Of a DNA stretch of 64,000 nt, positions 1 to 54,000 are shown piece after piece. The stretch covers positions 26,651-90,650 of the forward strand of contig PEAN01000005.1 in the NCBI GenBank assembly GCA_002753735.1, given 5' to 3'. The notes beneath the pieces were generated by a model that was not told where the DNA came from, made no database searches, and saw only the letters and a program-made list of their open reading frames with translations. A program made the position numbers and the translations under genes. The DNA comes from Magnetococcales bacterium DCbin4 (GTDB taxonomy: Bacteria > Pseudomonadota > Magnetococcia > Magnetococcales > UBA8363). Every line of letters starts with the position of its first letter. Position 1 is the first letter of the stretch.

Positions 1-157
1 GTCGCGGGGAAGCGGCGACATGGCAATGGTGACATTCCAGATTGCATTGCAATCCCACATTGACCTGAATCACCTCCAGGGGACCACTGTGCAACTCGGG
101 CTGACCGGTGTAGTGACGAATATTTTTCCTGAAGGTGTCTGATGATTTAATATTCAT
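1..157 (-). CDS. radical SAM protein, N-terminal fragment (ArsS-like radical SAM/Cys-rich family); continues past left edge
   Basis: Own minus-strand translation from ATG 157..155: MNIKSSDTFRKNIRHYTGQPELHSGPLEVIQVNVGLQCNLECHHCHVAASPR. CNLECHHC is a CxxxCxxC radical-SAM cluster motif. It is absent from the ORF track because it runs off the window. The start overlaps the upstream stop by 11 nt. Confidence 0.55.
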   Translation of the reverse strand, partial: MNIKSSDTFRKNIRHYTGQPELHSGPLEVIQVNVGLQCNLECHHCHVAASPR

Positions 158-548
158 TATATTTCAGCGACTTTCCATAAACCTGGTTGGCGGGATATTT
201 TTTTTCATTCAGCGCCATCTTGGCCCAGGCCGCATCCACCGGATCAATATTAAATTTGGAGGCCAACATGGTAAGATAGATCATCACATCCCCGATTTCC
301 TCCGCCAAAGCCTGTTGTTTGTCCAGGGGGATCGCACCACTTCCGGCCGTGTCAACCCACTGAAAGAGTTCCATGATTTCAGCAGCCTCCACACTCAATG
401 CCATGGCAAGATTTTTCGGGGAATGAAATCTGTGCCAATCACGCCGCTGAGCGAAATCGGCCAGGGCCTGTTGCAGCGATGCAATTCCTTTTGCAGGGGG
501 ATCAAGACTCATGCGACGGTACTCGTCAACGGTGGATGGAAGCAACAT
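147..548 (-). CDS. MazG-like nucleotide pyrophosphohydrolase
   Basis: 133-aa ORF. RDWHRFHSPKNLAMALSVEAAEIMELFQW and EEIGDVMIYL resemble small all-alpha MazG/dCTPase-type NTP pyrophosphohydrolases. Alternative start at Met13 (nt 512). Confidence 0.8.
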   Translation of the reverse strand: MLLPSTVDEYRRMSLDPPAKGIASLQQALADFAQRRDWHRFHSPKNLAMALSVEAAEIMELFQWVDTAGSGAIPLDKQQALAEEIGDVMIYLTMLASKFNIDPVDAAWAKMALNEKKYPANQVYGKSLKYNEY

Positions 549-594
549 GGGAATGGATCATCATAATCCTTTCCCTGGTTGGATGTGAACCCAC

Positions 595-780
595 TAATTC
601 TACTTTGTCAGATTCATCATCTGAAAAGGATGGCCGACAATTGACTGATATGTATAAAATTATTAAAAGAATAAAAGGGGTCTGGGGGCAATCCCTCAAA
701 CCCCCAGACCCCTTTTTTTCTTTCAATAATTTTTTGAGTGTCAATAATCCCTGATTGATGAATGTGACAAAGTAGAATTA
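595..780. mobile_element. 186-bp MITE-like non-coding element with 25-bp terminal inverted repeats and a central palindrome
   Basis: Left end 595..619 is TAATTCTACTTTGTCAGATTCATCA. The reverse complement of right end 756..780 is TAATTCTACTTTGTCACATTCATCA (24/25). Centre 677..712 is GGGGTCTGGGGG-caatccctcaaa-CCCCCAGACCCC flanked by an A-run and a T-run. No credible ORF inside. A related half-copy lies at 2795..2878. Confidence 0.6.
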
Positions 781-1054
781 ATGAGGAGTGTTCAAATGGA
801 TCATCGTTCCGAGGTGGATCTACAACGATTTGCCTGCTTTTGCCGCGCCTTTGAAGAGGGTGCGCGAAGTTTTGTCCTTGAAGAGGTATACGATGGTGAT
901 CCGGAGCGGGATTGGATGGATTGGAGTACACGGCAGGGATGGGTTGAATGGCAGGTCCGATCGACCTGTGATCATCAATGCCGTCTGGGAACCCTCACCG
1001 AATTGGGACAGGCAGTCCTCAAGCAGCGCAACACCCTGGTTCGAGCCGATCATC

Positions 1055-2668
1055 ATGACGCATGACACAGACCATCCAGCGACGGAACAACCGGACACCG
1101 GATCCTTCGTGATCAACGCCGGGGATCGGATCTGGCATCAGGTTTTGGCCTTGAATGCAGCGGGACGATTTGCCGAAGCCATGACCTTGATGGACCCCAT
1201 GTTCGCCCCGGGGGTTGATCCGGGATTGACCGCATGGAAACTGCGCGGACAATCGATGCATGGTCTGGGACGATTGGCCGAAGCGGCACGTATTTTTGCC
1301 CTCGTCCTGCAACGAACACCGAATGATGGGGACAGTCATGCACACCTGGCCACGGCCCTCCTGGGACTGAACCGTCTGGATCAGGCGTTGTTGACGGTGA
1401 ATCGAGGATTGCAGCAAACCCCTGGCAACAAGGAATTATTGCGGTTACAGATGGTCCTTTTGTGGCGGATGGGCAGGAAGGATGAGGCGTTGGCGTTGGC
1501 GAATCATCGGGTACGGGATTTTTCCCAGGAGGGTCCCATGTGGCATGAACGCGGCATCTTCCTATTGGAGCAGGGTGCCGACAAGGAGGCCCTGGCCGAT
1601 TTTGAGATGGCCTGTTCCCTCATGCCCAACGATGCCCGGGTTCACAACAACCGCGCAACAGCGCTTTGGCGCCTGGGACAATACAGAGCAAGCCTGGCTG
1701 CCGTTGAACGTGCGGTCGCACTGGATCCCAATCATGCCAGCGCACAACATCATCGGGCATTGTTGTTGTTGTTTCTGGGCGATTACGCATCGGGCTTTCC
1801 CGCCTATGAATGGCGTTGGCGTGATCCGGCCCATCTGGCACGGCAACCCTCATTGACCTCCTCCCCGTGGCGGGGGGAACTCATGCGGGATGCAACCTTG
1901 TTGATCTATCCGGAACAAGGGTTTGGCGATACGATTCAGTTCATCCGTTTTCTGCCAAAGGTCGCCCAACGGGTGGGAAAGATCATTTTCTCATGTTCAG
2001 GTCCCCTGGCGCCATTGCTGCGGCAGGCCCCCGGAATCGATCTCCTGTGGGACGGAGAACCACCGTCACCTGTGTTTCAAGTCCATGCACCATTGATGTC
2101 CCTGCCCGCCCTGTTGCAACAGACCCGCGACCAGATTCCCGGGGTATCCGGTTATCTCCCTGAGTTTTCCTGGGTAAAACCATCCCGGAATCGATCTTCC
2201 CCCCTCCCTTTGCGGATCGGATTGGTATGGCGGGGACGGGCGACGCATCGCAACGACCACAACCGCAGCCTGGATCTTGCCTGGTTCGACCCTTTGTTGG
2301 ACCTCGATTTCCTGACCTGGGTCTCGCTGCAGGAGGGCGCGGAAAAGGTATTAATGGAACATCCACATTGGCGGGATCGGATGGCATGTCCCAATCTTGC
2401 CGATTTTGCCGTGACGGCACGGATCATTCAAACGTTGGACCTGGTGATTGCCGTCGATACCGCGGTGGCACACCTGGCGGGCGCCTTGGGATGTCCGGTC
2501 TGGGTTTTGCTGCCTTTTGTTCCCGATTGGCGTTGGGGGCCGGAAGGGGAATCAACGGTCTGGTATCGATCCATGCGCCTGTTTCGGCAACCCGCTCCTG
2601 GCGATTGGGAACCGGTCAGAAAGCGACTGGTGCAGGCATTGAACCACTTCCATATTCATGATGATTAA
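1055..2668 (+). CDS. TPR-repeat protein with C-terminal glycosyltransferase family 9 (heptosyltransferase-like) domain
   Basis: The frame is open from GTG 788, but the first ATG with a plausible N-terminus is 1055 (MTHDTDHP...). The N-terminal half has TPR-like helices (e.g. ALADFEMACSLMPNDARVHNNRATALWRLGQYRASLAAVERAVALDPNHA). The C-terminal half has LLIYPEQGFGDTIQFIRF and DTAVAHLAGALGCPVWVLLP, typical of GT9-type domains. Start uncertain. Confidence 0.7.
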   Translation: MTHDTDHPATEQPDTGSFVINAGDRIWHQVLALNAAGRFAEAMTLMDPMFAPGVDPGLTAWKLRGQSMHGLGRLAEAARIFALVLQRTPNDGDSHAHLATALLGLNRLDQALLTVNRGLQQTPGNKELLRLQMVLLWRMGRKDEALALANHRVRDFSQEGPMWHERGIFLLEQGADKEALADFEMACSLMPNDARVHNNRATALWRLGQYRASLAAVERAVALDPNHASAQHHRALLLLFLGDYASGFPAYEWRWRDPAHLARQPSLTSSPWRGELMRDATLLIYPEQGFGDTIQFIRFLPKVAQRVGKIIFSCSGPLAPLLRQAPGIDLLWDGEPPSPVFQVHAPLMSLPALLQQTRDQIPGVSGYLPEFSWVKPSRNRSSPLPLRIGLVWRGRATHRNDHNRSLDLAWFDPLLDLDFLTWVSLQEGAEKVLMEHPHWRDRMACPNLADFAVTARIIQTLDLVIAVDTAVAHLAGALGCPVWVLLPFVPDWRWGPEGESTVWYRSMRLFRQPAPGDWEPVRKRLVQALNHFHIHDD

Positions 2669-2705: not shown

Positions 2706-2878
2706 GGAAAAACAAAGTCAAAAACTTAGGCATGGAAACCTTTTTATTTTAATTCAAAAACAAAACCAAAACCCTGGGGGCAATCCCTCAAGCCCCCTTT
2801 TTTATTTCAATATTTTTATACATATCAGTCAATTGCCAACCATCCTCCCAAGTCAATGAATGCGACAAAGTAGAATTA
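2706..2878. repeat. composite intergenic repeat: palindromic-element arm fused to an inverted half of the 595..780 MITE
   Basis: 2706..2806 aligns with the spacer plus right arm of the 14997..15157 element (ggcatggaaa...aattcaaaaacaaaa.caa.accctgggggcaatccc). 2795..2878 aligns with the reverse complement of 595..680 (ttttatacatatcagtcaattg...), ending in the TIR-like caatgaatgcgacaaagtagaatta. Confidence 0.55.
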
Positions 2879-2894
2879 ATCAGAATAACGAATA

Positions 2895-5832: not shown

Positions 5833-7839
5833 TCAAACAGAACCCGCATCGGATGGGATCGACGGCAAGGTCACCTTGAACACCGTTCCCGATCCCAGAG
5901 TGGATTCACAATCAATATGCCCTTCCAAACGGCGCACCAATGTTCGCACGCAAGCCAATCCAATCCCATCGCCAACCGTATCTTGCCGTCCAACCCTTTG
6001 GAACATTACAAATATTCTTTCAATATCCTCCTGAGCGATTCCCCTGCCATTATCCTTGACCCACAAAGTGACCTGACGTCCATCATCACTTTGTGCTCCA
6101 TAAATTTGAATGACTCCGGGGCGTGTCGGTTCAAGATATTTGATGGCGTTTGACAGCAGATTACCGATGATCTGCTCCATGGCAAAACGATCAGAAATCA
6201 GATGTGGCAGGGGGGCAACCGAAACGGTAATTCCCAATTCCTTGATGGTATAGCCCAATGCTTTGATATTATTTTCTACCAAAGATTGTAAATCAATTCT
6301 TTCAAACTGTAACACCGTTCGTCCCAATCGGGAAAGATTTAAAATGGCATTGGTCAATCCTTCCATCTTATGGGTGGAAGAACGGATGTAGCGCATATCC
6401 CCTGGAATGCGCATTCGCAAGAGATCATTGATTTCATTCACGGTTCCGACATCGGCGTGAACCATCTCGCGGGTGAGGACCTGGTCCAATGCTTCCAGAT
6501 CCATTTGCATCTCCTCCGAAAACCCCTGGATGCTCAGCAGGGGGGAACGCAGATCATGGGAAACAATGTAGGAAAAATTTTTGAGCTCTTCATTGATTTG
6601 GGATAATTCCAGGGTGGTTTGTCTGTGCCGGACCACTTCACACTCAAGCTCATGAAAGGAAGATTGGATCCTGTCGGCCATGAGATCGAACGATCGGCCC
6701 AGGATGCTGAGTTCATCGTTTCCTTGAATCCCGGTACGAACCGTCAGATCATTTCCGGAAAAGCGGGCTGCGGAATTACTGAGCAGATGGAGCACTGCCG
6801 TTTGCCGACGCACCATGTAGGCGTTCAACAGGACCAGCAGACAAAACAGGAGCAGGCAGGATCCGATGATACTGTAGAGTTCCCGCTTCAGGGGGGCGAA
6901 CAGTTCCTGTTCATCCATTTTGACCACCAATCCCATGCCCCACACAGGATTCAACCGCAAATGCCGAAAAGATGCAATCACCGGCTCGCCACGGTAGTCC
7001 AGGGCCGTGTCGATTCCTTCATGACCCGCGGCGGCCAAAACAGCCGGTTTTCCCTTCAGTTGGGAAACCATGGGTCTGGAGACGGTCCCATCGGGAAAAC
7101 GGTGCTTGAGCTTACTGATCAGGACCACGTGATCATCGACCAACAAAACTTCTCCACTGCTGCCCAAACCATCGCCGATACTGTGCAATCGTGCCAACAG
7201 AACCTCGGGATTAACGGCCGCAACCAGGATGGCCACCGCCCGCCCATCCACATCATGCACCGGATGGCCGATGCGAAACATCGGTCCCTGTTTCCCATGT
7301 TGATCATCATGCATACGCACTCGCCCGACATATCCCCGGGGTGAAAGCAACGTATAGTGTAGAAAGCTGTCTTTGACAACATGCCGTTTTACAACACCCG
7401 TACTGGAAAAAACCATCTGTCGCGCAAGATCGACCACCTCCAAAAATTCAAATTCAGGATATTCCCGGGCGATCATTTGCAAATACAAAAACATCCGGTT
7501 GCTTTCCGGGTCTGCAACCGAATGTGACAATCCATCGCGCAACAGAGAAGTCTTGGCGATGATACGAAGATCTCTCTGTTTGTCCGTCAGCCAACTTTCG
7601 ATCCGCTCCTTGTGCAGGGTGGCGATCAGGTCGAGCGTTTTGAACGTTTCAGTGCGCAACTGGTGGATGCGTCCATCGAAATAGGTATACGGTATGCCCC
7701 ATACCATCGCGTAGAAGATCAGACTCAACCCGCCCAAAAACAACAGACTGAACCAGAAAATCAACCGGGATCCCAGATTCCATCCCTGAAAGGTGCGTGC
7801 AAACCGAGGAGTTCCGGTGGCGACATTGCTCGTGTTCAC
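5833..7839 (-). CDS. membrane sensor histidine kinase with periplasmic Cache-like domain and HAMP
   Basis: Two hydrophobic segments (LIFWFSLLFLGGLSLIFYAMVW; IIGSCLLLFCLLVLLNAYMV) bracket a roughly 270-aa extracytoplasmic region. H-box SHDLRSPL. ATPase boxes LLSNAIKY, DNGRGI, GIGLA. The GTG start overlaps the upstream stop (GTGA). Confidence 0.9.
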   Translation of the reverse strand: MNTSNVATGTPRFARTFQGWNLGSRLIFWFSLLFLGGLSLIFYAMVWGIPYTYFDGRIHQLRTETFKTLDLIATLHKERIESWLTDKQRDLRIIAKTSLLRDGLSHSVADPESNRMFLYLQMIAREYPEFEFLEVVDLARQMVFSSTGVVKRHVVKDSFLHYTLLSPRGYVGRVRMHDDQHGKQGPMFRIGHPVHDVDGRAVAILVAAVNPEVLLARLHSIGDGLGSSGEVLLVDDHVVLISKLKHRFPDGTVSRPMVSQLKGKPAVLAAAGHEGIDTALDYRGEPVIASFRHLRLNPVWGMGLVVKMDEQELFAPLKRELYSIIGSCLLLFCLLVLLNAYMVRRQTAVLHLLSNSAARFSGNDLTVRTGIQGNDELSILGRSFDLMADRIQSSFHELECEVVRHRQTTLELSQINEELKNFSYIVSHDLRSPLLSIQGFSEEMQMDLEALDQVLTREMVHADVGTVNEINDLLRMRIPGDMRYIRSSTHKMEGLTNAILNLSRLGRTVLQFERIDLQSLVENNIKALGYTIKELGITVSVAPLPHLISDRFAMEQIIGNLLSNAIKYLEPTRPGVIQIYGAQSDDGRQVTLWVKDNGRGIAQEDIERIFVMFQRVGRQDTVGDGIGLACVRTLVRRLEGHIDCESTLGSGTVFKVTLPSIPSDAGSV

Positions 7840-8954: not shown

Positions 8955-9140
8955 GCCACTTCATGTTCCCATTCAGGGTCAATGTTACCGTTCAAATCCC
9001 CCTCTTTGTTGGATGTGTCGATCAATGATCAATAGAAAAAAGGGATCTGAGAAATTGCCTCCAGGGTGTTAATTTTGGTTTTACATCTCCCCTCATGGGT
9101 CGGGGAACGAAGCCCTTCAGGGTTTTTTTGAGCTTTCGGG

Positions 9141-9192
9141 AAAAAAGATCAAAACTCCGGGAGCAATCCCCCAGACCTTTTTTCCTTGATCA
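9141..9192. repeat. degenerate solo arm of the palindromic intergenic element
   Basis: aaaaaagatcaaaactccgggagcaatcccccagaccttttttccttgatca matches the consensus ...aaaatcaacaccctgggggcaatcccccagacccc-T-run-cttgatca with several substitutions. Confidence 0.45.
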
Positions 9193-14773: not shown

Positions 14774-15001
14774 ATGATGTCCCGAACGACACCTGAAAAT
14801 GACGACATGGCGCTGCGGGAACATTTGGAACTGCTGTATCAGGCATTGATCAAGGTTCCCCGGGGGATGGGGGATCATACCGATTTGTGCCGCATGCACA
14901 ATCAGGGGCTTCCCCCTGCCGATGATCACCTTTGCCGTTGTCATGTCGGCCCGGTTCGTGCCGCCCTGGTCCGTTATCGTTCCTGGAAAGATAAATATTG
15001 A
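14774..15001 (+). CDS. hypothetical small protein (75 aa)
   Basis: Starts 4 nt after the aminotransferase stop, and codon usage looks like neighbouring genes. Contains CRMH...CRCH. The stop TGA lies inside the conserved ATTGAAAG left end of the adjacent repeat. No family recognised, so it could be non-coding. Confidence 0.3.
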   Translation: MMSRTTPENDDMALREHLELLYQALIKVPRGMGDHTDLCRMHNQGLPPADDHLCRCHVGPVRAALVRYRSWKDKY

Positions 15002-15157
15002 AAGAAAAAAGGGGGTCTCAAGGGATTGCCCCCAGGGTTTTGATTTTGACTTTATAAACAAAATCAAAGGCGGGGCATGGAAATCTCCTTGTTTAAATTC
15101 AAAAACAAAATCAACACCCTGGGGGCAATCCCCCAGACCCCTTTTTTTTCTTGATCA
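14997..15157. repeat. palindromic intergenic element, two inverted arms with about 75-nt spacer
   Basis: Left arm is attgaaagaaaaaagggggtctcaagggattgcccccagggttttgatttt. Right arm is aaaatcaacaccctgggggcaatcccccagaccccttttttttcttgatca, the reverse complement of the left arm apart from a few bases. Each arm carries the hairpin CTGGGGG-CAAT-CCCCCAG. Confidence 0.7.
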
Positions 15158-15159
15158 TC

Positions 15160-17387
15160 ATGTATGTGGAAATCGCCCTCCCCATTCCCCTGCAAACCTT
15201 GTTCACCTATGCCCTGCCTGAACCTTTTTCATGGTGCAGACCCGGCAGTCTGGCCCTCGTCCCGGTCGGTCGCACCCAACGGGTCGGTGTCGTCTGGCGC
15301 ATCCTGGAACAACCCCAATGGACCCGGGGAACCATCCGCCCCATCCACGACATCCTGACCCCCGAACCCTTGTTCGACGCCGATCTTTTGTACCTCCTGG
15401 AATGGATCAGCCGCTACTACCTGCGCCCCCTCGGCAGCGTGATCGCCGCCGCCATGCCCGCCCATCTGCGTTTTGAACCGCACCAACGCGCCATCTGGAT
15501 CGGAAGACACCATCCCGTCAAACCGGAACTGGAACCCCTGGTCACCCTCCTGGAAAAACAGAAAAGCCTGACCCTGACCACCCTGAAACGCCATCTGGGC
15601 GCCAAAGGATTGAAAGAAAATCTGCATCACCTGGAACAACAAGGGATCCTGCGCCTGGAAACCCACTACCGGCCCCGCCATTCACCGGAAGCATCACCCC
15701 CGATCCCCCCCTGGGCCCAACCCAACGATGATCCCGCCGATAAAATAACAAGTCATCCGCTGAACCCGGAACAGGGCACTTGCGTCGATTATCTGACCAA
15801 GGGACTCCATGACCGGACATTCCGCCCGTTTCTCCTGGAAGGGGTCACCGGCAGCGGCAAAACCGAGGTTTATTTCCGCATCGTCGAAGCCTGCCTGCAA
15901 TTCGGGCGTCAAGTATTGATGCTGGTGCCGGAAATCGGTCTGACCCCCCAACTGGTCCAACGTTATCGGGAACGATTCAATACGGAACTGTCCATTTTTC
16001 ACTCCGGCATGCGTGACCGGCAACGGTTTGAAGCCTGGCAACAATTGCGTTCCGGTCAGGCCCGCGTGGTCATCGGTACCCGCAGTGCCATTTTCGCCCC
16101 TTTCGCTGATCTTGGCCTCATCGTCGTGGACGAAGAACACGACACTTCCTACAAACAGGAAGGATCGGTCCCCTATCATGGCCGCGACATGGCGGGGGGG
16201 CCGTGGTCCGGGCACAAAAGGCGGGGGCACTTTTGATTCTGGGCAGTGCCACCCCTTCCATGGAGACGCTGCACAACGCCCGGACCGGACGATTCACCCA
16301 CCTCAAGCTCAACCATCGCGCCACGGGTGCCCCACTTCCAAGCATCCGGACCATTCACCTGGGACAAAAGGAAAACCAACGGCCCAACGCCAAAAATCCC
16401 CTGATCAGCCTCCCCCTGGAACAGGCGCTGCGCCAAACCCTGGATCAGGGATTGCAGTCATTGTTGTTTCTCAATCGCCGCGGATGGGCACCCTCATTGT
16501 TGTGTCATCGGTGCGGTCACGCCGTCATGTGTCCCAATTGCACGGTCACCCTGACCTGGCATGAGAAGAAAAAATTACTCATCTGTCATTATTGCGATCA
16601 TCGGCAATCCCCCATGGACATCTGTCCCGATTGCGGTCAGTTGAGCCTGTTTTTTTTCGGCCCCGGCACCGAACAGTTGGAACAGGAAACCCGCCTCCGT
16701 TTCCCCGATGCACGCATTGCCCGAATTGATCGGGATTCGGTCGGAAACAAGGAAATCGATCTGGAACAAACCTTGAGCGCCTTTCATGATGGGCAACTGG
16801 ATATTCTGGTCGGCACCCAGATGACCGCCAAGGGGCACCATTTCCCAAAACTTGCGCTGGTCGGTGTCGTCCTGGCCGAAAGCGCCCTCTGGCAACCCGA
16901 CTTTCGCGCCGCCGAACGGACCTGTCAATTGCTCACCCAGGTTGCAGGCCGGGCGGGGCGTGAGGCAACCGTGGGCCAGGTCTTGATCCAAACCTTCGAT
17001 CCGGCCCATTATGCCCTCAAAGCGGTGGTACACCATGACACGACCGGTTTTGCCCAACAGGAACTGGCATTGCGTCATGAAATCGGTTACCCCCCGTTTC
17101 AAAGATTGGCTTTGCTCCGTTTTTCGGCGCTCAAACAGGAGGATGGGGAACATTATGGCCTCATGTTGGCTCAAAACCTCCCACGATCAGACCAGGCAAC
17201 CCTCCTGGGACCGGCCCCCTCACCCCTGTTCAAACTGCGGGGTCGCTACCGTTGGCAACTCCTGATCAAGGAAAACCCCGGTGCCCGGCTGCATGGATAC
17301 CTCAATCAACTCCTCAAGACCGCAGAAACCCTGGCCCCCAAGGCCATCCGCGTTGACCTGGATGTCGATCCGCACTCTTTTTTATAG
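15160..17387 (+). pseudogene. priA: primosomal protein N-prime (PriA helicase), reading frame broken at a G7 run (frameshift or sequencing error)
   Basis: Two abutting ORFs (15151..16236 and 16203..17387) together give a full PriA. It has Walker A GVTGSGKT, DEEH, the Cys-rich zinc region CHRCGHAVMCPNCTVTLTWH...CHYCDH...CPDC, and helicase C motifs. The frames join if the G7 run 16194..16200 is read as G8 (RDMAGGAVVRAQKAGALLILGSATPS). Start is ATG 15160 (MYVEIALP). Confidence 0.85.
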
Positions 17388-18003: not shown

Positions 18004-18966
18004 ATGACCCCTTTGAAGATCGTGTTCATGGGGACTCCCGATTTTGCGGTCCCCAGCCTCGCCGCCCTGATCTCCAGCCCCGATACGGTCGTCGGCGTCT
18101 TCACCCAACCCGATCGGGTCGCCGGACGAGGGCTGCGTCTCCAACCCTCCCCGGTCAAACAGCACGCCCTGGCCCATGGATTGACCGTGCATCAACCCAC
18201 CACGCTGCGCCATCCCGATGCCGTCACCCTGCTCCAATCGTTGCAACCCGACCTGATCGTCGTCACCGCCTACGGTTTGCTCCTCCCCCCTGCGATTCTC
18301 GCCATCCCCGGTCATGGTTGCATCAATGTCCATGCCTCGCTGTTACCCCGGTGGCGGGGTGCCGCCCCCCTGCACCGGGCCATCCTGGCGGGGGATCGGG
18401 AAACCGGCGTGACCATCATGGCCATGGAGGCGGGATTGGATACCGGCCCCATCCTTGCCATGGACACAACCCCCATCGACGACACCATGACCGGTGGCCG
18501 TTTGCATGACCAACTGGCTGAACAGGGGGCGCGTCTGTTGACCACCACCCTCGCCGCCTTGAAGATGGGAACCCTCAAACCCCAACCCCAACCCACCACA
18601 GGGATCACCTACGCCGAAAAATTGACCCGCGATGATGAATGGATCCACTGGAACCAGGAGGCCACCCTCATCCACCGCCAAATCCGTGCCTTGAATCCCT
18701 GGCCCGGTGCCCGCACCACCTTTCAGGGACACACCTTGAAAATCATCGCCGCCCACCCTGCCGAAAGGAATCAACAGGGACAACCTGGAGAAATCATCAC
18801 CCTCCTGGAGTCCGGTTTTGAAGTCGCCTGCGGTCAAGGGTCGCTGATTGTGACCCGGGTCACCCCCAGTGGCAAAAAAACCATGTCCGCCGCCGCCTGG
18901 ATCCACGGTCGCCATCTGACCACCGGCAACCTCCTGGGCGCATCACAACCAACCGACCGTCTGTAG
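18004..18966 (+). CDS. fmt: methionyl-tRNA formyltransferase
   Basis: IVFMGTPDFAVPSL, INVHASLLPRWRGAAP, and a C-terminal Fmt domain. Lies directly after def. Confidence 0.95.
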   Translation: MTPLKIVFMGTPDFAVPSLAALISSPDTVVGVFTQPDRVAGRGLRLQPSPVKQHALAHGLTVHQPTTLRHPDAVTLLQSLQPDLIVVTAYGLLLPPAILAIPGHGCINVHASLLPRWRGAAPLHRAILAGDRETGVTIMAMEAGLDTGPILAMDTTPIDDTMTGGRLHDQLAEQGARLLTTTLAALKMGTLKPQPQPTTGITYAEKLTRDDEWIHWNQEATLIHRQIRALNPWPGARTTFQGHTLKIIAAHPAERNQQGQPGEIITLLESGFEVACGQGSLIVTRVTPSGKKTMSAAAWIHGRHLTTGNLLGASQPTDRL

Positions 18967-19242
18967 CGCATTCAACCTTGATCACGTCGTCCATTCCCCT
19001 GAACGACGACCGCCTCGACTGGCATCACCACCCTCGGTTACATTATCATGGTTCCTGGGAGATGCGGGTCGGATATGGTAAACTGATCTTTCCCTGAATT
19101 TTTAGACCTCGCCAAAATCAAGGGTCCGGGTAGAGGCAATCCCTCTGTTGATCCAAGGTGTGTCATCCGCTTTTTTTCGACCACCGACAAACAGCCCTTT
19201 TCCCGCCACGGATCCAAATTTTGCCAATGGTTTGACTTGAGC

Positions 19243-21765: not shown

Positions 21766-21826
21766 TGATCAAGAAATAAAATGGGGCTTGAGTGATTGCC
21801 CCCGGACCCCTTTTTTTTCTTAATCA
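21766..21826. repeat. compact single-palindrome copy of the intergenic element (dnaN|recF spacer)
   Basis: tgatcaagaaataaaatggggcttgagtgattgcccccggaccccttttttttcttaatca. The ends TGATCAAGAAA and TTTCTTAATCA are inverted repeats. Centre is gattgccccc/ggacccc with a T-run. Confidence 0.6.
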
Positions 21827-21832
21827 TTTTCT

Positions 21833-25401
<3,569 letters not shown>

Positions 25402-27795: not shown

Positions 27796-28863
27796 ATGAT
27801 TCAGGAGACTGCGGCAATCGAAACGGGGTGTTCCTTGTCCGACCATGACTCAAGCTACAAGCTGCTTTTCAGCCACGCCGACATGGTTCAGGATCTGTTG
27901 GAAGGGTTCGTTAAGGAAAAGTGGGTCGGACAACTCGATTTTTCTACCTTGGAAAAAGTCAGCGGCAGTTTTGTGACCGACGATTTGCGTGATCGTGAAG
28001 ACGATGTGATCTGGCGGGTTCGCTGGGGTAGGGAATGGTTGTTCGTCTATCTGTTGCTGGAATTTCAATCGACGGTCGATTGGATCATGTCGGTCCGGAT
28101 TGCCACCTATGTCATGCTTTTGTACCAAGACCTGGTCAAATCGGGAATGGTGAAGCGACAGGATCGACTCCCGGCCATTCTTCCGGTAGTCCTTTACAAT
28201 GGCAAACGGCCATGGAACTCGGCCCTTGATGTCGCGGAATTGATCCGATCCATTCCTGGAGGACTCGACCATTATCGTCCGCGTGTGCGGTACCTGTTGA
28301 TCGACCTGGTCAGGTATCATGACACTCAATCAACGGCAAAACATAATCTTGTCATGGCACTTTGCCAGTTGGAAAAGAGCAAGACCGTCGAAGATATCCA
28401 TAAGGTGGTCAAACAGTTGATCGCGTGGTTGCAGACTCCAGAACAATCAAGTTTACGACGGGCCTTTACCGTCATGTTGGGACGGGTCCTGTTGCCGAAA
28501 AAAATGCCGGGACAGACCGTACCGGAATTGAACGACTTACAGGAGGTGGATACCATGTTGGCCGAAACGGTACAGGAATGGACCAAAGAGTGGCAAGCCC
28601 AAGGGTGGTCCAAAGGATTGCAGGAGGGATTGCAGGAAGGATTGCAGGAAGGATTGCAGGAAGGATTGCAGAAAGGATTGCAGAAAGGATTGCAGGAGGG
28701 AAAAGCTGCGCTTTTGTTGCGTCTGATTCAACGGCGTTTTGGCTCCTTGACCGAGGCACGCATCCATCAGGTGCAAACCGCAAGTCTGGAAACCCTTGAA
28801 CTATGGGGAGATCGGATACTTGAAGCCAAAACCCTGGATGAAATCTTCCTGGATCCGGAATAA
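27796..28863 (+). CDS. Rpn-family recombination-promoting nuclease / putative transposase (PD-(D/E)XK) with C-terminal DUF4351-like domain
   Basis: N-terminus HDSSYKLLFSHADMVQDLLEGFV, core DDVIWRVRW...VYLLLEFQSTVD...LPVVLYNG, and C-terminus AALLLRLIQRRFGSLTEARIHQVQTASLETLELWGDRIL. These are typical of the TIGR01784-type Rpn family, by recall. Confidence 0.8.
   Translation: MIQETAAIETGCSLSDHDSSYKLLFSHADMVQDLLEGFVKEKWVGQLDFSTLEKVSGSFVTDDLRDREDDVIWRVRWGREWLFVYLLLEFQSTVDWIMSVRIATYVMLLYQDLVKSGMVKRQDRLPAILPVVLYNGKRPWNSALDVAELIRSIPGGLDHYRPRVRYLLIDLVRYHDTQSTAKHNLVMALCQLEKSKTVEDIHKVVKQLIAWLQTPEQSSLRRAFTVMLGRVLLPKKMPGQTVPELNDLQEVDTMLAETVQEWTKEWQAQGWSKGLQEGLQEGLQEGLQEGLQKGLQKGLQEGKAALLLRLIQRRFGSLTEARIHQVQTASLETLELWGDRILEAKTLDEIFLDPE
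28615..28698 (+). repeat. in-frame 12-bp tandem repeat, 7 units (GGATTGCAGGAA), encoding (GLQE/K)7
   Basis: Counted directly. Units start at 28615, 28627, 28639, 28651, 28663, 28675 and 28687. Variants are caggag, caggaa and cagaaa. Confidence 0.9.
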
Positions 28864-29715: not shown

Positions 29716-29738
29716 TTTTAAATCGGATGCCCTTCGGG

Positions 29739-29799
29739 CAAAAAAATCAACGTCAAAACCCTGGGGGCAATCCCCCAGACCCTTTTTTTTTCTTGATCA
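29739..29799. repeat. solo arm of the palindromic intergenic element (bla|tyrS spacer)
   Basis: aaaaatcaacgtcaaaaccctgggggcaatcccccagaccctttttttttcttgatca. Confidence 0.7.
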
Positions 29800-29805
29800 T
29801 TTTTC

Positions 29806-31097: not shown

Positions 31098-32327
31098 ATG
31101 GAGACAATGAATCGGGCTGTGGGACTCATGTCTGGAACCTCGGCGGATGGGATCGATGCCGTATTGTTGGAAACCGATGGCATGACGACGCCCCATGTAT
31201 GTGCCAGATTGGCCGTACCCTACCCTGAACCGTTGCGCCAACGAATCCTGGAACTGTATGAACCGGGAAATAACGAGCTGGATCGATTGGGAACACTGGA
31301 TCGTGATGTGGGTGAATTGTTTGCGATGGCAGCCCTCGACGTATGCCGCATCGGCGGCGTCGCTCCAAGTGCCGTCGATGTCATCGGCAGCCACGGTCAA
31401 ACCGTCCGCCATCGCCCCCCGTTTTTTTCCCTGCAAATTGCCAACCCCTTCATGATCGCCCATCGGAGCGGCATCGTGACCATCGCCGATTTCCGGATGG
31501 CCGACATGGTACGCGGCGGTGAAGGGGCACCCCTGGTACCTTTGTATCATCAAATTCTGTTCGGCAATGCCAGACAGACCACGGCGGTCGTCAATCTGGG
31601 AGGGATTGCCAACGTCACCGCCTTGCCCCTTGACGGTCCCATCGTTGCAGGAGATACCGGACCCGCCAATACCTTGATGGATCATTGGGCCGAACAGGTG
31701 AGCCATGGCCGCGAACATTGTGATCGCGACGGTGCCCGGGCGGCCCGGGGAGCGGTCAATACCGATGCATTGCACTGGTTGTTGCGCCACCCCTACTTTG
31801 ATCGCCCATTCCCCAAATCGACCGGCAGAGAAATCTTTGGGACCACTTTTCTGGATGAATTCGTGACCCGGTTTCCCCACATGACCACGGATGACCGCTT
31901 TCGTACCCTGACCCAACTGACGGTGGAAACCGTGGCGAGGGCATGTGAACGTTTGCTACCCCCGCATCCCGACCGGATGGTGTTGTGTGGCGGGGGTGCG
32001 GAGAACCCGGTGTTGGTCGCCGGATTGCGGGAACGACTGGTCAGAACAGAGGTGATGTCCAGCAGCAGCCTGGGGGTCGATACCGCGTTTCTCGAAGCGG
32101 AAGCCTTTGCCTGGTTCGCGGTACGTACCTTGAAAGGACTCCCGTCCAACCTGCCAGAGGCAACCGGGGCACACACACCTGCCATCCTGGGTTCCATTCA
32201 TCTCCCCGGTCCCGGCTACCAGTTATTGAAAGAAAAAAGGGGTCTGGGGGATTGCCCCCAGGATTTTGATTGTAAAAACAAAGTCAACACCCTGGGGGCA
32301 ATCCCCCAGACCCCTTTTTTTTCTTAA
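31098..32327 (+). CDS. anmK: anhydro-N-acetylmuramic acid kinase; the last ~34 codons and the stop are supplied by a repeat element
   Basis: [21 protein letters not shown]-terminus and [17 protein letters not shown] motifs. From about 32225 the ORF reads through the palindromic element ([33 protein letters not shown]). Confidence 0.9.
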
Positions 32328-32330
32328 CCA
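32225..32330. repeat. palindromic intergenic element, two inverted arms with about 15-nt spacer
   Basis: attgaaagaaaaaaggggtctgggggattgcccccaggattttgatt...aaagtcaacaccctgggggcaatcccccagaccccttttttttcttaacca. The arms are reverse complements of each other. Confidence 0.75.
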
Positions 32331-32360
32331 TTTTTCTGAATGCCAACACACCTTGACGGA

Positions 32361-38984: not shown

Positions 38985-39016
38985 AAAAAAAAGGGTTCCC
39001 ATCATGGTGGGAACCC
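38985..39016 (-). terminator. intrinsic terminator for the minus-strand lipoprotein gene
   Basis: Stem GGGTTCCCA (38993..39001) / TGGGAACCC (39008..39016) with a 6-nt loop. The A8 run at 38985..38992 on the plus strand is a U8 tract after the hairpin on the minus-strand transcript. Confidence 0.7.
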
Positions 39017-39087
39017 TTGTTCCATTGCCAGCGATCTCAACTTGATGGATCCCGCAGCACCCTGAAATGCGGAGCGGGATTTGATGT

Positions 39088-47179: not shown

Positions 47180-48217
47180 TTGGGATTTGCCATGACGGAT
47201 ATTGCGCAACCTCATGACCGATTTGTCAAAGCCCTTCTTTCCGATCCGGGAAGGGCGGGGAGCCTGTTACGCGAACGTTTGCCGCAAGAAATCTCCGGGT
47301 TGTTGTCACCTGAACCGCCGATTCTGGTCGAGGGGTCTTTCGTTGATGAAGAATTGCGCAGCCACCTGACAGACCGGCTTTTCCAAGCGAAAACAATCAC
47401 AAGTCGGACCGCGTTCCTCTACGTCTTGATTGAGCATAAAAGCTTTCCAGATCGTCGGGTTGGATGGCAAATCGTCAAATACACCGTCGCGTGGTGGAAA
47501 CAATGGGAACGTGAACATCCCGAGTGGGAGATGTTGCCGCCCATCATTCCCTTTGTGTTCTATCATGGCGCATCAGAATGGCGTATTCCTGACGAATTCT
47601 TATCCTTGGTGGATGCAGAAAAAGGTTGGAAACCTTGGCTTCTGAATCTTCGATACCTTGTTTTGGACCTCGGCAACATCGACGATCGTGTATTGTCCAA
47701 GGATCCCCGGTTGAAAGCCTGGTTGTTGGCAGTCAAGTATGCATCCCGAAAAAATCATCAATTGCAGATACAGGAGCTGTTGGTCGAAGCCCTTCTGGAT
47801 ATCCCGGAAGATCTGTATGTCATCATTCGGTATCTCGTGGAAACCTTTGAGTGCTATGATGAACAAACCGTTCGTGAAATCATCCGCCAGGTTCGACCGG
47901 AGGAGGAAGAACAAATGATGTCACAATTTGCACAAGACATTATCGCCAAGGAAAAACCTGATTGGTTGCAACGAGGCCGTCAGGAAGGCCGCCAGGAAGG
48001 CCGCCAGGAAGGCCGCCAGGAAGGCCGCCAGGAAGGCCGCCAGGAAGGCCGCCAGGAAGAAGCGGCAACCATCCTCCTTAAACTCATACGTCGCAAATTT
48101 GGCCAAATTCCCGACGGGACAACCGATAAAGTCAAGTCCGCAGAATTGGAACTCATTGAAAAATGGAGTGATAACTTTGTATTCGCCAACACTCTGGATG
48201 ACGTTTTTGCCTCTTGA
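47180..48217 (+). CDS. Rpn-family recombination-promoting nuclease / putative transposase (YhgA/Transposase_31-like) with DUF4351-like C-terminus
   Basis: PHDRFVKALLSDPGRAGSLLRERLP, FLYVLIEHKSFPD, and IPFVFYHGASEW are signatures of the YhgA-like PD-(D/E)XK family. C-terminus ATILLKLIRRKFGQIPDGTTDKVKSAELELIEKWSDN. Confidence 0.8.
   Translation: MGFAMTDIAQPHDRFVKALLSDPGRAGSLLRERLPQEISGLLSPEPPILVEGSFVDEELRSHLTDRLFQAKTITSRTAFLYVLIEHKSFPDRRVGWQIVKYTVAWWKQWEREHPEWEMLPPIIPFVFYHGASEWRIPDEFLSLVDAEKGWKPWLLNLRYLVLDLGNIDDRVLSKDPRLKAWLLAVKYASRKNHQLQIQELLVEALLDIPEDLYVIIRYLVETFECYDEQTVREIIRQVRPEEEEQMMSQFAQDIIAKEKPDWLQRGRQEGRQEGRQEGRQEGRQEGRQEGRQEEAATILLKLIRRKFGQIPDGTTDKVKSAELELIEKWSDNFVFANTLDDVFAS
47975..48058 (+). 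repeat. in-frame 12-bp tandem repeat, 7 units (GGCCGCCAGGAA), encoding (GRQE)7
   Basis: Counted directly. Unit 1 is ggccgtcaggaa at 47975; units 2-7 are identical ggccgccaggaa, ending at 48058. Confidence 0.9.
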
Positions 48218-51023: not shown

Positions 51024-54000
51024 TCACACAAAAGCCCGGCGCAACCGATCCACCTCCCGCTCCCGCCAGAGCGCCAATTGGTTGAACTGTTCCGACAATT
51101 CAAACCGCATCTGCCGCAATACCGGTTTGGGAGCGGGTTGGGGCGTGGGATGGGGACCATTGAATCCCTCCTCCTCCACCGGCACCAAAAATGGTTCGGT
51201 ACCCGTCCCGAGCTGCTCTGGTGCGACCTGTTCGGCATCGGTTCCGGCATCGGTCCCCGTCGGAGGGTTTTCCGAACGCGGTTCCGGAAACCAGGGCATG
51301 AAGGATAATCCCGGCATGAAAAATCCTTTGTTCGGCCCCTGATCAGGGAAAGGACTCCCCAATTGCATCGGCGTCCCTTCGGGACGGCTGGCCACGACCG
51401 CAGCCAATACCGGCGTCACCGAGGCCCCCGGGGCGACACTGCGACCGGCACGTTTGACGGCGTTCAATACCGGCGTCACCACCCCCCCATCTTCCACTCC
51501 GGGAGAGGCGTTCATCACCGCGGTCAACAACGGCGTACCACTGGCATCCAGGGCTACGCTGCGTTCATAACCCCGAACGACGGTCAGAATGGGACTGGAA
51601 GCATACTCGACATCCATTCCCATCAAGGACACACTGCCGCTCGGCGCGGGTGACGGCATGACCTCCATGGGACGTTGACCCATTTTTCCCCACCATTGTT
51701 GCCCGGCATCTTCCAATTGGAAAGAACCCGATGCCACCGTCGGCGTTGATTCCACAACCTGCTCCACCCTGGAAGAAGACTCCACCAGGATCACCGGTCG
51801 CACCGCTGTGACCGGCGGCGTCACCACCGGTGGCGTCACCACCGGTGGATTCACCACTGGCGGCGCAACGACAACCGGCGGTTCGATCACCGGCACCTCT
51901 GCTGGAACCTCCGGCCCGGGATTGACCTGGATGACAAAATCGGTCGTTACGATGAACCCGCCCGAGCTGTCATCGACACTGAAACGAAACCGGTCGGCCC
52001 GGGTCTCACCCTGGTTGCGATAGACGAGACGACCCCGGGTAATATCTTCCTGGGTGAACCGACCCCCGGCGACCAATTCAACCCCTGCCAGGAACAACCG
52101 TCCAAAGTTGGGGGTTTTTTCCAGGTGATAGACCAATTCCCGCTCAACATTGTCCACATCCCAGACGCTCAGTTCCTGCCAACCAATGGTTTTTTCCTCG
52201 CCACGCACCAGGGTAATCCCGGCGTTGATGCCGATTCGGGGTAGATCATTCACCGGTTTGACCGTCACCCGGACCGTAGCGATATCGATACGGCGATCAC
52301 CCGCGTTCAAGGTATAGGTGAATTGATCGGTTCCTTGAAAATCGTGGTTGGGAATGTAAAGGAACGCATGATTGCCCACATAGGCGACGGTGCCATGTGC
52401 CCCTTGAGTAAAGGCAATGATGGTCAAGGCTGGATTCGCCCCATCGCCACGCCATTCGAGATCGCGATCATTGAGCAAAAGATTACCCGTCTGGGTCGGT
52501 TCGTCTTCAAGGAGGATCAGGGCATCCGCCCCCGCTTCCAAACCCTCCTCAATGGGATTGATGATGACAACGGTCGTGAAGGCATAGTTACCGGTCGCAT
52601 CGGTCACCGTATAGGAGAACTGATCAAATCCTGCAAAGTTGGCGTTGGGGATGTAGACGAATTGACCGTTGCCCCGATCCTCCAAGGTGCCGAACCGGGG
52701 TTGGGTGAATCCGACCAGGGTTAAACCCGAATTGGGACCATCCCCATCATGATCGTTGTGCAACAAGGAGGGACCGAGATTAATGAGGACCGGTTCATTG
52801 ATGGCGATGGGATGGTCGGTCGGCGGAAGGATGACATCCATTCCCGGCAGGGGGGTATCGGCCACCGCGGTCACCTGGATCAAAACATCCGCCCCGGTGG
52901 TCGCCTCGGGGACGGTACCGCCATGCCCCTGATCACTGACCAGGAGGTGCAGGGTATCGATACCCGAATAATCATGCGTCCCCTGATAACGCAACGTGGC
53001 CAGGGTTTGGTTGATCAGGTTGACGTTGCCCACCAGGGTCATGGATGCGGTATGATTGCGGCCATTTTGAAACTGCAATCCCGGCAATTCAGAGACACTG
53101 ATGGTTCCATGTTCCACTGCCAGGCGAACCAGGATCGATCCCGAACCGATTTCGGGATCGCCGACCACAAACCCGGGCAACGGGGTATCCACATCTTCCA
53201 GCACCGAAAAGGGTTCCGGGACGGTCAGGACCGGAGGTTCATTGACCGGGGTGATGGTGATGGCACATGCCCGTTCAAGCAAACCGCTCCCCTGACCATC
53301 CTGCACCTCGAAGCGGAATTCATCCGCCAAGGTTTCACTGCCATCATGGCGATAATCGATCCGGCCCGCGATCAAATCGGCCTGGGTAAAGGTCTGCCCC
53401 ACCCCCAGAACGATTCCACTGCGATACAACCCGCCATGAACCGGGATGGATGCGAGGCGATAAAGGATGGCATCCGGTCCCGATTCGGCATCGACGACAG
53501 ACAAGGCAGTCGGCGAAAGTAACCCGCTCCCACCCTCGGCGACGGTCAATCCGGTATTGGCCAGGAGACGCGGGGCATCATTGACCGCGGTGACCGTTAC
53601 CGCCACCGATTGATTCAAAAGAAAACCACCTGCCCCATCGGTGACGGTCACCACAAAGGGATCATTGATCGACTCACCCCCATCGTGGGTATAAATGACA
53701 CGATGATGGTTGATATCCTCCTGGGTGAACATCCCCCCGGAAGTCACGGCCAATCCATTCACGGTGATCACACCATGGCTCGGCGCGGTTGCCAACACAA
53801 AGCTGACTTGGGCTGCGGATTGTTCCACATCCCTGGCCTCGAACATGTGCCGGGTCAAAACCACCCGGCCCCCCTCTTCAAGGCTCATCCCGGTATTGCT
53901 GACCATGACGGGGGCATCATTGTCCGGGGTGACCTCGATCACCACCCATACATGATCCAACCTGCGATCCCCGGTACTCAGGGCATAGGAAAAATGGTCC

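Follow-up and report, generated by a model that had tools for sequence, protein, structure and literature searches.

Seven sites in a Magnetococcales genome segment share a palindromic arm and probably belong to one family of interspersed foldback repeats

The window analyzed here is a stretch of 64,000 nucleotides from Magnetococcales bacterium DCbin4 (GenBank assembly GCA_002753735.1, contig PEAN01000005.1, positions 26,651 to 90,650). It contains the gene order dnaA-dnaN-recF-gyrB, the gene anmK converging on rpe, and tyrS followed by a gene for a transpeptidase/β-lactamase-like protein, all of which had been named correctly in the original prediction made from the sequence alone. A GC-clamped palindromic element is found between dnaN and recF, between anmK and rpe, and next to tyrS, and another copy lies immediately upstream of priA. 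The original prediction listed seven such sites and took them for one mobile family, similar to repetitive extragenic palindromic (REP) sequences or MITEs (miniature inverted-repeat transposable elements), rather than for independently evolved terminators.

All seven sites are built from one shared arm, as had been proposed; this is borne out by a profile search and by a core search against shuffled sequences. The 18-nt hairpin core CTGGGGGCAATCCCCCAG, allowing up to three mismatches, matches seven times in the 64-kb window compared with 0.23 expected matches, and none of 100 shuffled sequences reaches seven. An nhmmer arm profile, trained on 102 arms that all came from other genomes, yields 12 arm matches in the window (E values of 4e-19 to 0.02), every one of them inside the seven sites, and no further match with E < 0.9 in the remainder of the sequence. 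All seven sites were also inspected by direct reading.

When intact, the element folds back on itself almost perfectly over ∼220–250 bp, with two inverted ∼60-nt arms whose T-runs point outward. An arm is made up of (CAAARN)n hexamers, which vary in number, followed by CAAAACC, the hairpin CTGGGGG-CAAT-CCCCCAG, the spacer ACCCC, a run of 6–8 T residues, and CTTTTAATAATTTT (CTTGATCA in the genome of the window). The previously suggested T8 tail of the consensus holds for this genome (T8 CTTGATCA) but not across genomes, where the tail is T6 CTTTTAATAATTTT. The inner segment between the arms comprises A/T-rich modules that are themselves inverted. In related genomes, this “−+” pair is the common form (34 sites), with a spacing between centers of mostly 125–190 nt. 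A conserved module, GGCATGGAAACCTTTTTGTTTAAATTC, is found upstream beside the arms, and optional outer modules include a small CTAG-bounded palindrome, a module ending in GCGATTGCCCTG, and a module ending in GACAAAGTAGAATTAAT (as at 592–783). The overall organization is a mosaic, as in bacterial interspersed mosaic elements (BIMEs). A nested palindromic module (CTAGGGGGTGTCAACAAATGATCGAATGTCAACACGCCCTAG) and a module ending in ...TTTCAAATGCGATTGCCCTG also recur just outside the arms in L021, L073, L084, L086, and other loci, and appear to be very small repeat families of their own, found in association with the arm family.

Conservation of the arm extends well past the hairpin. Over 102 arms, the 22 flanking positions beyond the search pattern are 68–99% conserved, most of them to at least 90% (CAAAACC upstream and ACCCCTTTTTTCTTT downstream). 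In the main family, the stem hardly varies, with one sequence in 144 of 151 full-length cores, partly as a result of ascertainment. In DMHC-6, sub-families occur (e.g. L001 3003–3105, L016 427–511, and L090 4056–4179) that keep the flanks and the hairpin but carry the loops ATGAAT or ATTGCAT or an extended GCGG-AGAA-CCGC. At the base of their stem, C-G has changed to T-A in a compensated manner, with T·G intermediates, and the arms of these sub-families are frequently arranged tail-to-tail, including tail-to-tail dimers. A diverged arm of FCR-1 (Ca. Magnetaquicoccaceae, L116 19067–19112), the sole match in 21 kb of that genome, reads GTCAAAACC-CTGGGAGA-GGAA-TCTCCCAG-AC...TTTTTT and retains the flanks as well as the hairpin via paired stem changes. 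The hairpin is maintained across sub-families, with loops that differ and stem changes that are compensated.

The family is not confined to the window. A scan for the exact 18-mer, performed with one genome per species in 8-kb tiles, returned at least 102 tiles with a match. Among the matches listed, 100 of the 102 tiles belong to metagenome-assembled genomes (MAGs) of five other Magnetococcales species (DMHC-6, DCbin2, nWRX3bin6, nHA5abin3, and C5_bin.1) and hold at least 138 exact cores. The remaining two tiles match by chance, and their flanks are unrelated. At least six Magnetococcales genomes carry the arm in many copies, with the same loop, spacer, and flanks; in housekeeping DNA, the other genomes are no more than 69–79% identical to the window. 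Fifty-five of the 138 cores (40%) are located no farther than 110 nt from a true contig end, compared with 2.2 expected, and three other assemblies of the strain of the window break inside the elements (two in site 4, and the JGI contig at position 32293 in site 7), indicating that the repeat is high-copy and breaks assemblies. The window itself is identical or 99.7–99.9% identical to contigs of GCA_015229055.1, GCA_015232265.1, GCA_015234015.1, JGI 3300003895, and ERR711863.

A metagenome scan recovered 31 contigs with the core, all from one sample that is probably the source of C5_bin.1, since several of these contigs are identical to C5_bin.1 contigs. No core matches were obtained in viral contigs, and of the 20-kb samples taken around anmK in more distant genomes, that of FCR-1 had its one diverged arm and those of Magnetofaba australis and MYC-9 contained none; the family seems to be centered on a freshwater clade. 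At gathering thresholds, Rfam matched none of the elements, neither those of the window nor those of eight loci, and in E-value mode it gave only sub-threshold, generic long-hairpin matches (such as miRNA precursors and WsnRNA46). In the library of papers that was searched, the core sequence was not found, and Magnetococcus or Magnetococcales were not linked to repeats of the REP/MITE type.

Comparison of orthologous spacers (dnaN-recF, anmK-rpe, and the tyrS side) confirmed that occupancy differs between related genomes. The dnaN/recF spacer holds a full 223-bp pair in nWRX3bin6 (L024 3691–3914) and a collapsed copy in the window. Between anmK and rpe, the window carries a pair, GCA_015228815.1 (L113) a degenerate solo arm, and GCA_015232675.1 (L114) an empty spacer of 16 nt. 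The site on the tyrS side is occupied in the window (site 6) and empty in L113, L114, and L115. The spacer in L054 is filled (225 nt), whereas the matching spacer in L056 consists of 66 unrelated nucleotides without an element. Likewise, DCbin2 (L060 and L079) contains two or more elements at a position at which nWRX3bin6 (L066) shows a ∼20-nt spacer and none, with flanks that are 91% identical. Related genomes thus differ by gains and losses of copies at intergenic sites.

In one case, a copy reaches into a gene. The anmK reading frame (31098–32327) runs through site 7 to a TAA at 32325–32327, in the right arm, so that its last 33 codons are element sequence. The product is 409 amino acids long in the window compared with 372–388 amino acids in most Magnetococcales homologs, and the site 7 element has replaced the 3′ end of anmK.

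The copies in the window are decayed forms of the intact element: a compact pair (site 7), a pair with a mutated arm (site 4), a degenerate pair (site 3), collapsed copies (sites 1 and 5), a half element (site 2), and a solo arm (site 6). Because CTGGGGG and CCCCCAG both occur within each arm, the two arms of a pair have direct repeats in common in addition to inverted ones. Site 5 consists of the (−) arm's outer half and the (+) arm's 3′ half, linked by the loop ATTG, and this is exactly the product that a deletion between direct CCCCCAG copies would be expected to leave.

We scored the placement of 66 sites against rough gene calls. Fifty-seven of them are intergenic (39 in tandem, 12 in convergent, and 6 in divergent spacers), and the remaining nine “inside” cases are gene ends or doubtful small open reading frames (ORFs). 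Divergent spacers are under-used by length (p = 0.03) but not by number (p = 0.37). Solo arms in tandem spacers point with transcription in seven cases and against it in nine, and therefore show no orientation bias.

Folding distinguishes the paired and collapsed copies from the solo arms. The full element of L024 folds with −121.9 kcal/mol (z −15.4), site 7 with −72.4 and −75.5 kcal/mol as RNA of the two strands (z −11.4 and −10.0) and −45 kcal/mol as DNA (z −11.6), site 1 with −49.6 kcal/mol (z −9.9), and site 4 with −75.7 kcal/mol (z −6.1); site 2 has no significant fold. In paired and collapsed copies, both strands present a long stem whose GGGG/CCCC base directly abuts a 5′ A-run and a 3′ U-run, as in bidirectional intrinsic (rho-independent) terminators. 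In a solo arm, the hairpin has only 7 bp and ACCCC separates it from the U-run; such an arm folds no better than shuffled sequences (z −1 to −1.8; site 6, −1.1 and −1.8). A GC-rich stem-loop with an immediate U-run is consequently a feature of the paired and collapsed forms but not of solo arms. The family also departs from typical intrinsic terminators in its stem of 30–100 bp, compared with 5–12 bp, and in the 5-nt spacer that precedes the U-run of solo arms.

The earlier view of each arm as a bidirectional terminator is hence borne out for the geometry of the paired and collapsed forms and fails for single arms. Paired and collapsed copies have the shape of a bidirectional intrinsic terminator and are predicted to act as terminators or 3′-end stabilizers, whereas solo arms are probably inert remnants. 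Because solo arms fold poorly and are randomly oriented, termination would be a side effect of the intact foldback and would not explain why each arm exists. The strongest terminator-like sites in the window are the element hairpins and one classical terminator on the minus strand at 38991–39018 (AAGGGTTCCCACCATGATGGGAACCCTT followed by TTTTTT), which is the only strong classical terminator of the window outside the family.

Three loci from two species carry a group II intron of ∼1.85 kb within the arm, at the position CCCCCAGACC^CCTTTTT. The intron starts with GTGCG at its 5′ end, matches Rfam RF00029 (domain V) and RF02001 (D1–D4), and encodes a 443-amino acid reverse transcriptase-maturase (RVT_1 and GIIM) without an endonuclease domain. 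Its insertion point lies 3 nt beyond the stem, ahead of the T-run. Bacterial class C introns insert directly after terminator stem-loops, and the position observed here fits the habit of such terminator-targeting introns. By its insertion sites, the intron treats the arm as a homing site.

Taken together, the seven sites very probably represent one family of non-autonomous interspersed foldback repeats that is high-copy in freshwater Magnetococcales, is gained and lost, and is terminator-like when intact. The proposal of one REP/MITE-like family instead of independent terminators is upheld by the arm shared among at least six genomes, the assembly breaks, the variable occupancy, and the lack of orientation bias in solo arms. 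We propose that new copies would arise by transposition catalyzed by an enzyme acting in trans. Copies may then decay by deletion between short direct or inverted repeats within the arms, which would give rise to the compact, collapsed, half, and solo forms. When transcribed, a paired or collapsed copy would fold to a GC-clamped hairpin and, as its predicted structure suggests, could act as an intrinsic terminator or 3′-end stabilizer on either strand.

Several observations weigh against this interpretation. The transposase with matching ends envisaged earlier, RAYT/IS200-like (RAYT, REP-associated tyrosine transposase) or other, was not found in the ∼0.97 Mb of sampled sequence around the elements. 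Escherichia coli RayT, used as a single-sequence query in tblastn and phmmer on this partial genome sample, found no match; the one borderline hit, an ORF in L139, is HemN-like and of the radical-SAM type. All-against-all clustering of the ORFs of 102 loci produced common paralog families only and no recurrent transposase. In the same partial sample, arm pairs (−/+) that are 0.45–4 kb apart enclose no transposase, and the housekeeping genes between them encode EPSP synthase, MFS, FtsX, and SecB proteins and an aminotransferase. The YhgA-like (Transposase_31) gene at 27796–28863 was rejected as a mobilizer, as it adjoins no arm and does not recur near arms.

The ends of the element pose a similar difficulty. 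No target-site duplication is recognizable in 28 pairs, the ends of which are A/T-rich, and the filled and empty pairs are too diverged to place the junction; no sharp terminus is definable, and conservation tapers past AATAATTTT. Furthermore, five assemblies of the window's strain do not differ from one another at the sites that they cover and thus show no ongoing movement, and the nearly invariant stem of the main family, in part a matter of ascertainment, provides no covariation evidence. A simple terminator scan of the window reveals no overall excess of terminator-like sites, and terminator activity is predicted from geometry. Finally, the strong conservation across species could be the outcome of selection for a host function.

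Which kind of repeat the family represents, and how it is maintained, can be judged by comparison with known systems. A true REPIN system (REP doublets forming hairpins) would equate the arm with a REP and the inverted pair with the replicative unit, which a once-per-genome RAYT, a transposase of the Y1 HUH type, mobilizes from single-stranded DNA. As described for E. coli and Pseudomonas fluorescens SBW25 (Bertels and Rainey 2011, PMC3116915), REPINs are extragenic, hairpin-forming doublets with singlets as decay products, several sub-families per genome, and no target-site duplication. The Magnetococcales family has extragenic, hairpin-forming doublets, singlets that resemble remnants, and several sub-families within one genome, with no target-site duplication recognized, and its high-copy, GC-rich palindromes also resemble REPs and BIMEs in that inverted doublets give a long hairpin in single-stranded DNA or RNA, arms form mosaics with other motifs, and tandem and convergent spacers are preferred. 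However, most REP super-families are marked by a GTAG or CGTC tag (PMC3733652), and the consensus arm AAAATCAAAACCCTGGGGGCAATCCCCCAGACCCCTTTTTTCTTTTAATAATTTT has neither; GTAG occurs solely in the rarer outer module. The ∼60-nt arms with their hexamer microsatellite and A/T-run tail, the total length of 220–250 bp, which exceeds that of typical REPINs, and the occurrence of the same sequence in several species are likewise unlike REPINs, and no RayT-like ORF came to light in the partial sample. We regard a REPIN system in the strict sense as possible but doubtful.

A classical MITE would be the deletion derivative of a DDE-type insertion sequence (IS), with the arms as terminal inverted repeats (TIRs) and the parent transposase acting in trans. 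The inverted termini, a length of 200–350 bp, the lack of a coding region, the A/T-rich interior, and the mosaic of nested small elements speak for this origin, as does the 192-bp copy at 592–783 with its 28-nt outer inverted repeats. It is nevertheless unlikely, given that neither a target-site duplication nor sharp ends can be recognized and that the sampled loci yielded no transposase inside arm pairs and no recurrent transposase ORF. The Correia elements (NEMIS) of Neisseria and other MITEs are similar in being intergenic foldbacks with inverted ends that are co-transcribed and are possible terminators or processing sites, and Correia elements, too, occur in short and long forms through internal deletion. 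They differ from the present family in having defined 26-bp TIRs and a TA duplication, where the family shows neither a visible duplication nor a sharp terminus.

The ERIC (enterobacterial repetitive intergenic consensus) or IRU (intergenic repeat unit) elements of enterobacteria are imperfect palindromes of ∼100–250 bp that lie in transcribed intergenic regions and are conserved across genera. They vary by internal insertions and deletions, have no G5/C5 clamp between A- and T-runs, and to our knowledge have no known transposase. The family would resemble ERIC in being an intergenic palindrome of similar size that has variable internal insertions and deletions and is conserved between genomes; the sequence is unrelated, and the host lineage is different. 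Because the pattern of doublets and singlets and the lack of a visible duplication fit REPINs, whereas size and mosaic organization fit MITEs and ERIC, we consider the family a new, “junk-like” example of the well-known REP/REPIN/ERIC/MITE-like kind of bacterial repeat.

The near-identity of the arm of at least 45 nt in at least six species, together with the lack of a GTAG or CGTC tag and of a detectable RAYT or IS parent, also raises a more speculative idea. The family may be a REPIN-like element with a novel mobilizing or maintenance enzyme that is vertically inherited across much of the order and doubles as a dedicated homing site for one lineage of group II introns, although we hold this to be rather unlikely.

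Alternatively, the arm could be a non-mobile motif that host selection keeps identical and that is copied by gene conversion or recombination; a terminator cassette would be one example, and a site bound by a nucleoid or uptake protein another. The strong conservation of the arm among species with 69–79% identical housekeeping DNA, its presence in the same dnaN/recF spacer of two species, and the ideal terminator geometry of the paired forms would agree with such a role. Against it stand the orthologous spacers that are empty in close relatives, the overwritten 3′ end of anmK, the absence of orientation bias in solo arms, and the visible decay of many copies, which make a host-selected motif improbable. 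An uptake-type signal would in addition be expected inside genes, yet the copies are almost all intergenic; a DNA uptake sequence (DUS, or a similar uptake signal sequence, USS), which occurs in genes too at about one per kb, was rejected on this ground and in view of the unit of at least 45 nt.

It is highly improbable that the arms are the 3′ ends of a small RNA gene family or independently evolved terminators, as the hairpin with its U-run and the conserved upstream module might suggest, because there is no Rfam family at threshold and no promoter signal noted, the arrangement is palindromic with random orientation of solo arms, and the identity through loop, spacer, and flanks far exceeds the needs of a terminator. 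Since the sequence is common to all sites, the putative terminators formed by the elements did not evolve in place, and we return to the interpretation as one family of interspersed foldback repeats for the individual copies in the window (Table 1).

Table 1. Copies of the repeat in the window and intron-bearing arms in related genomes
Feature	Coordinates	Strand	Form	Arm matches and composition	Neighboring genes
Site 1	592–783		192-bp composite foldback	653–688(−) / 675–735(+)	
Site 1, outer inverted modules	592–619 and 756–783			ends in GACAAAGTAGAATTAAT	
Site 1, collapsed core	653–735			AAAAGGGGTCTGGGGG-CAATCCCTCAAA-CCCCCAGACCCCTTTTTTT	
Site 2	2729–2880	+	half element	2754–2820(+), degenerate stem, E 7e-15; order: inner module GGCATGGAAACCTTTTTATTTTAATTC, hexamer repeats, (+) arm, outer module 2806–2880	convergent TPR gene / hybrid histidine kinase gene
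Site 3	9020–9188		degenerate pair	9020–9084(−), E 3e-8; 9145–9188(+), E 8e-9	two minus-strand genes
Site 4	14993–15162		pair	14993–15054(−), stem mutated to CTGGGGGCAATCCCTTGAG; 43-nt inner spacer; 15098–15162(+), perfect arm	75-aa ORF downstream of DegT aminotransferase gene; priA start at 15160
Site 5	21766–21834		collapsed single palindrome	21766–21805(−) / 21799–21834(+)	dnaN / recF
Site 6	29727–29805	+	solo arm	29742–29805(+), E 3e-18; preceded by small inner-module hairpin GCCCTTCGGGC	tyrS / class-D-like transpeptidase/β-lactamase gene, both minus strand
Site 7	32221–32338		compact pair, core-to-core 48 nt	32221–32274(−) / 32272–32338(+)	convergent anmK / rpe
Intron, L036 (DCbin2)	73–1927				
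Intron, L095 (nWRX3bin6)	from ∼1302				
Intron, L060 (DCbin2)	6790–6889	−			

Two of the sites are larger than first described. Site 3 is degenerate, as stated before, but it is not a single copy, since its left arm at 9020–9084 had been overlooked. Site 2 was rightly listed as a copy, but its extent was underestimated; it is a half element that includes the outer module of site 1, which is found again at 2856–2880 and in loci of nHA5abin3. The solo arm of site 6 is antisense to transcription, as both neighboring genes are on the minus strand.

The original prediction further placed all copies left of 33 kb. Their absence from the right part of the window is correct, but a regional bias is marginal (Fisher p = 0.06 by intergenic gaps, 19 left and 10 right; 0.034 by intergenic length). 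There is little intergenic space at the right end of the window, because a single minus-strand ORF of 4306 amino acids (51024–63944, ∼13 kb, with internal repeats of periods of ∼339, 1644, and 4083 nt) fills most of it. We therefore dropped the clustering as a feature in itself, as it mostly follows from the distribution of intergenic space and the statistics are marginal.

None of these findings overturns current understanding, but they have several consequences. The repeat fragments MAG assemblies of magnetotactic cocci and distorts gene calls, adding 33 codons to anmK and creating small spurious ORFs over elements. It adds a deep-branching proteobacterial lineage to the clades with a REP/ERIC-like family of their own, provides a clean series, running from the intact element via compact and collapsed copies to solo arms, on which the decay of such elements can be studied, and is a natural example of a repeated hairpin being the target of a group II intron. 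Possible uses are as a typing marker and as a compact bidirectional terminator part for bacteria that are hard to engineer.

Some other features of the window deserve mention. Next to site 4, priA is split into overlapping ORFs (15151–16236 and 16203–17387). In GCA_015234015.1 (L108), the same region, set apart by a single 8-nt gap, encodes PriA in full (739 amino acids), and the split is due to a frameshift or else to an assembly error in the sequence of the window. A comparison of the window with L104 and L109 upstream of dnaA revealed genes for a phosphonate-binding protein and a methyl-accepting chemotaxis protein (MCP) between fmt and dnaA on the contig of GCA_015229055.1, whereas fmt leads directly to dnaA in the window (∼18938–18979) and in three other assemblies. 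This difference is due to either a rearrangement or a chimeric join beside the region of the replication origin. Tandem arrays of 12-nt units are located at 28601–28713 (AAGGATTGCAGG, ∼9 times), near the 3′ end of the YhgA-like gene, and at 47961–48061 (GGAAGGCCGCCA, ∼8 times).

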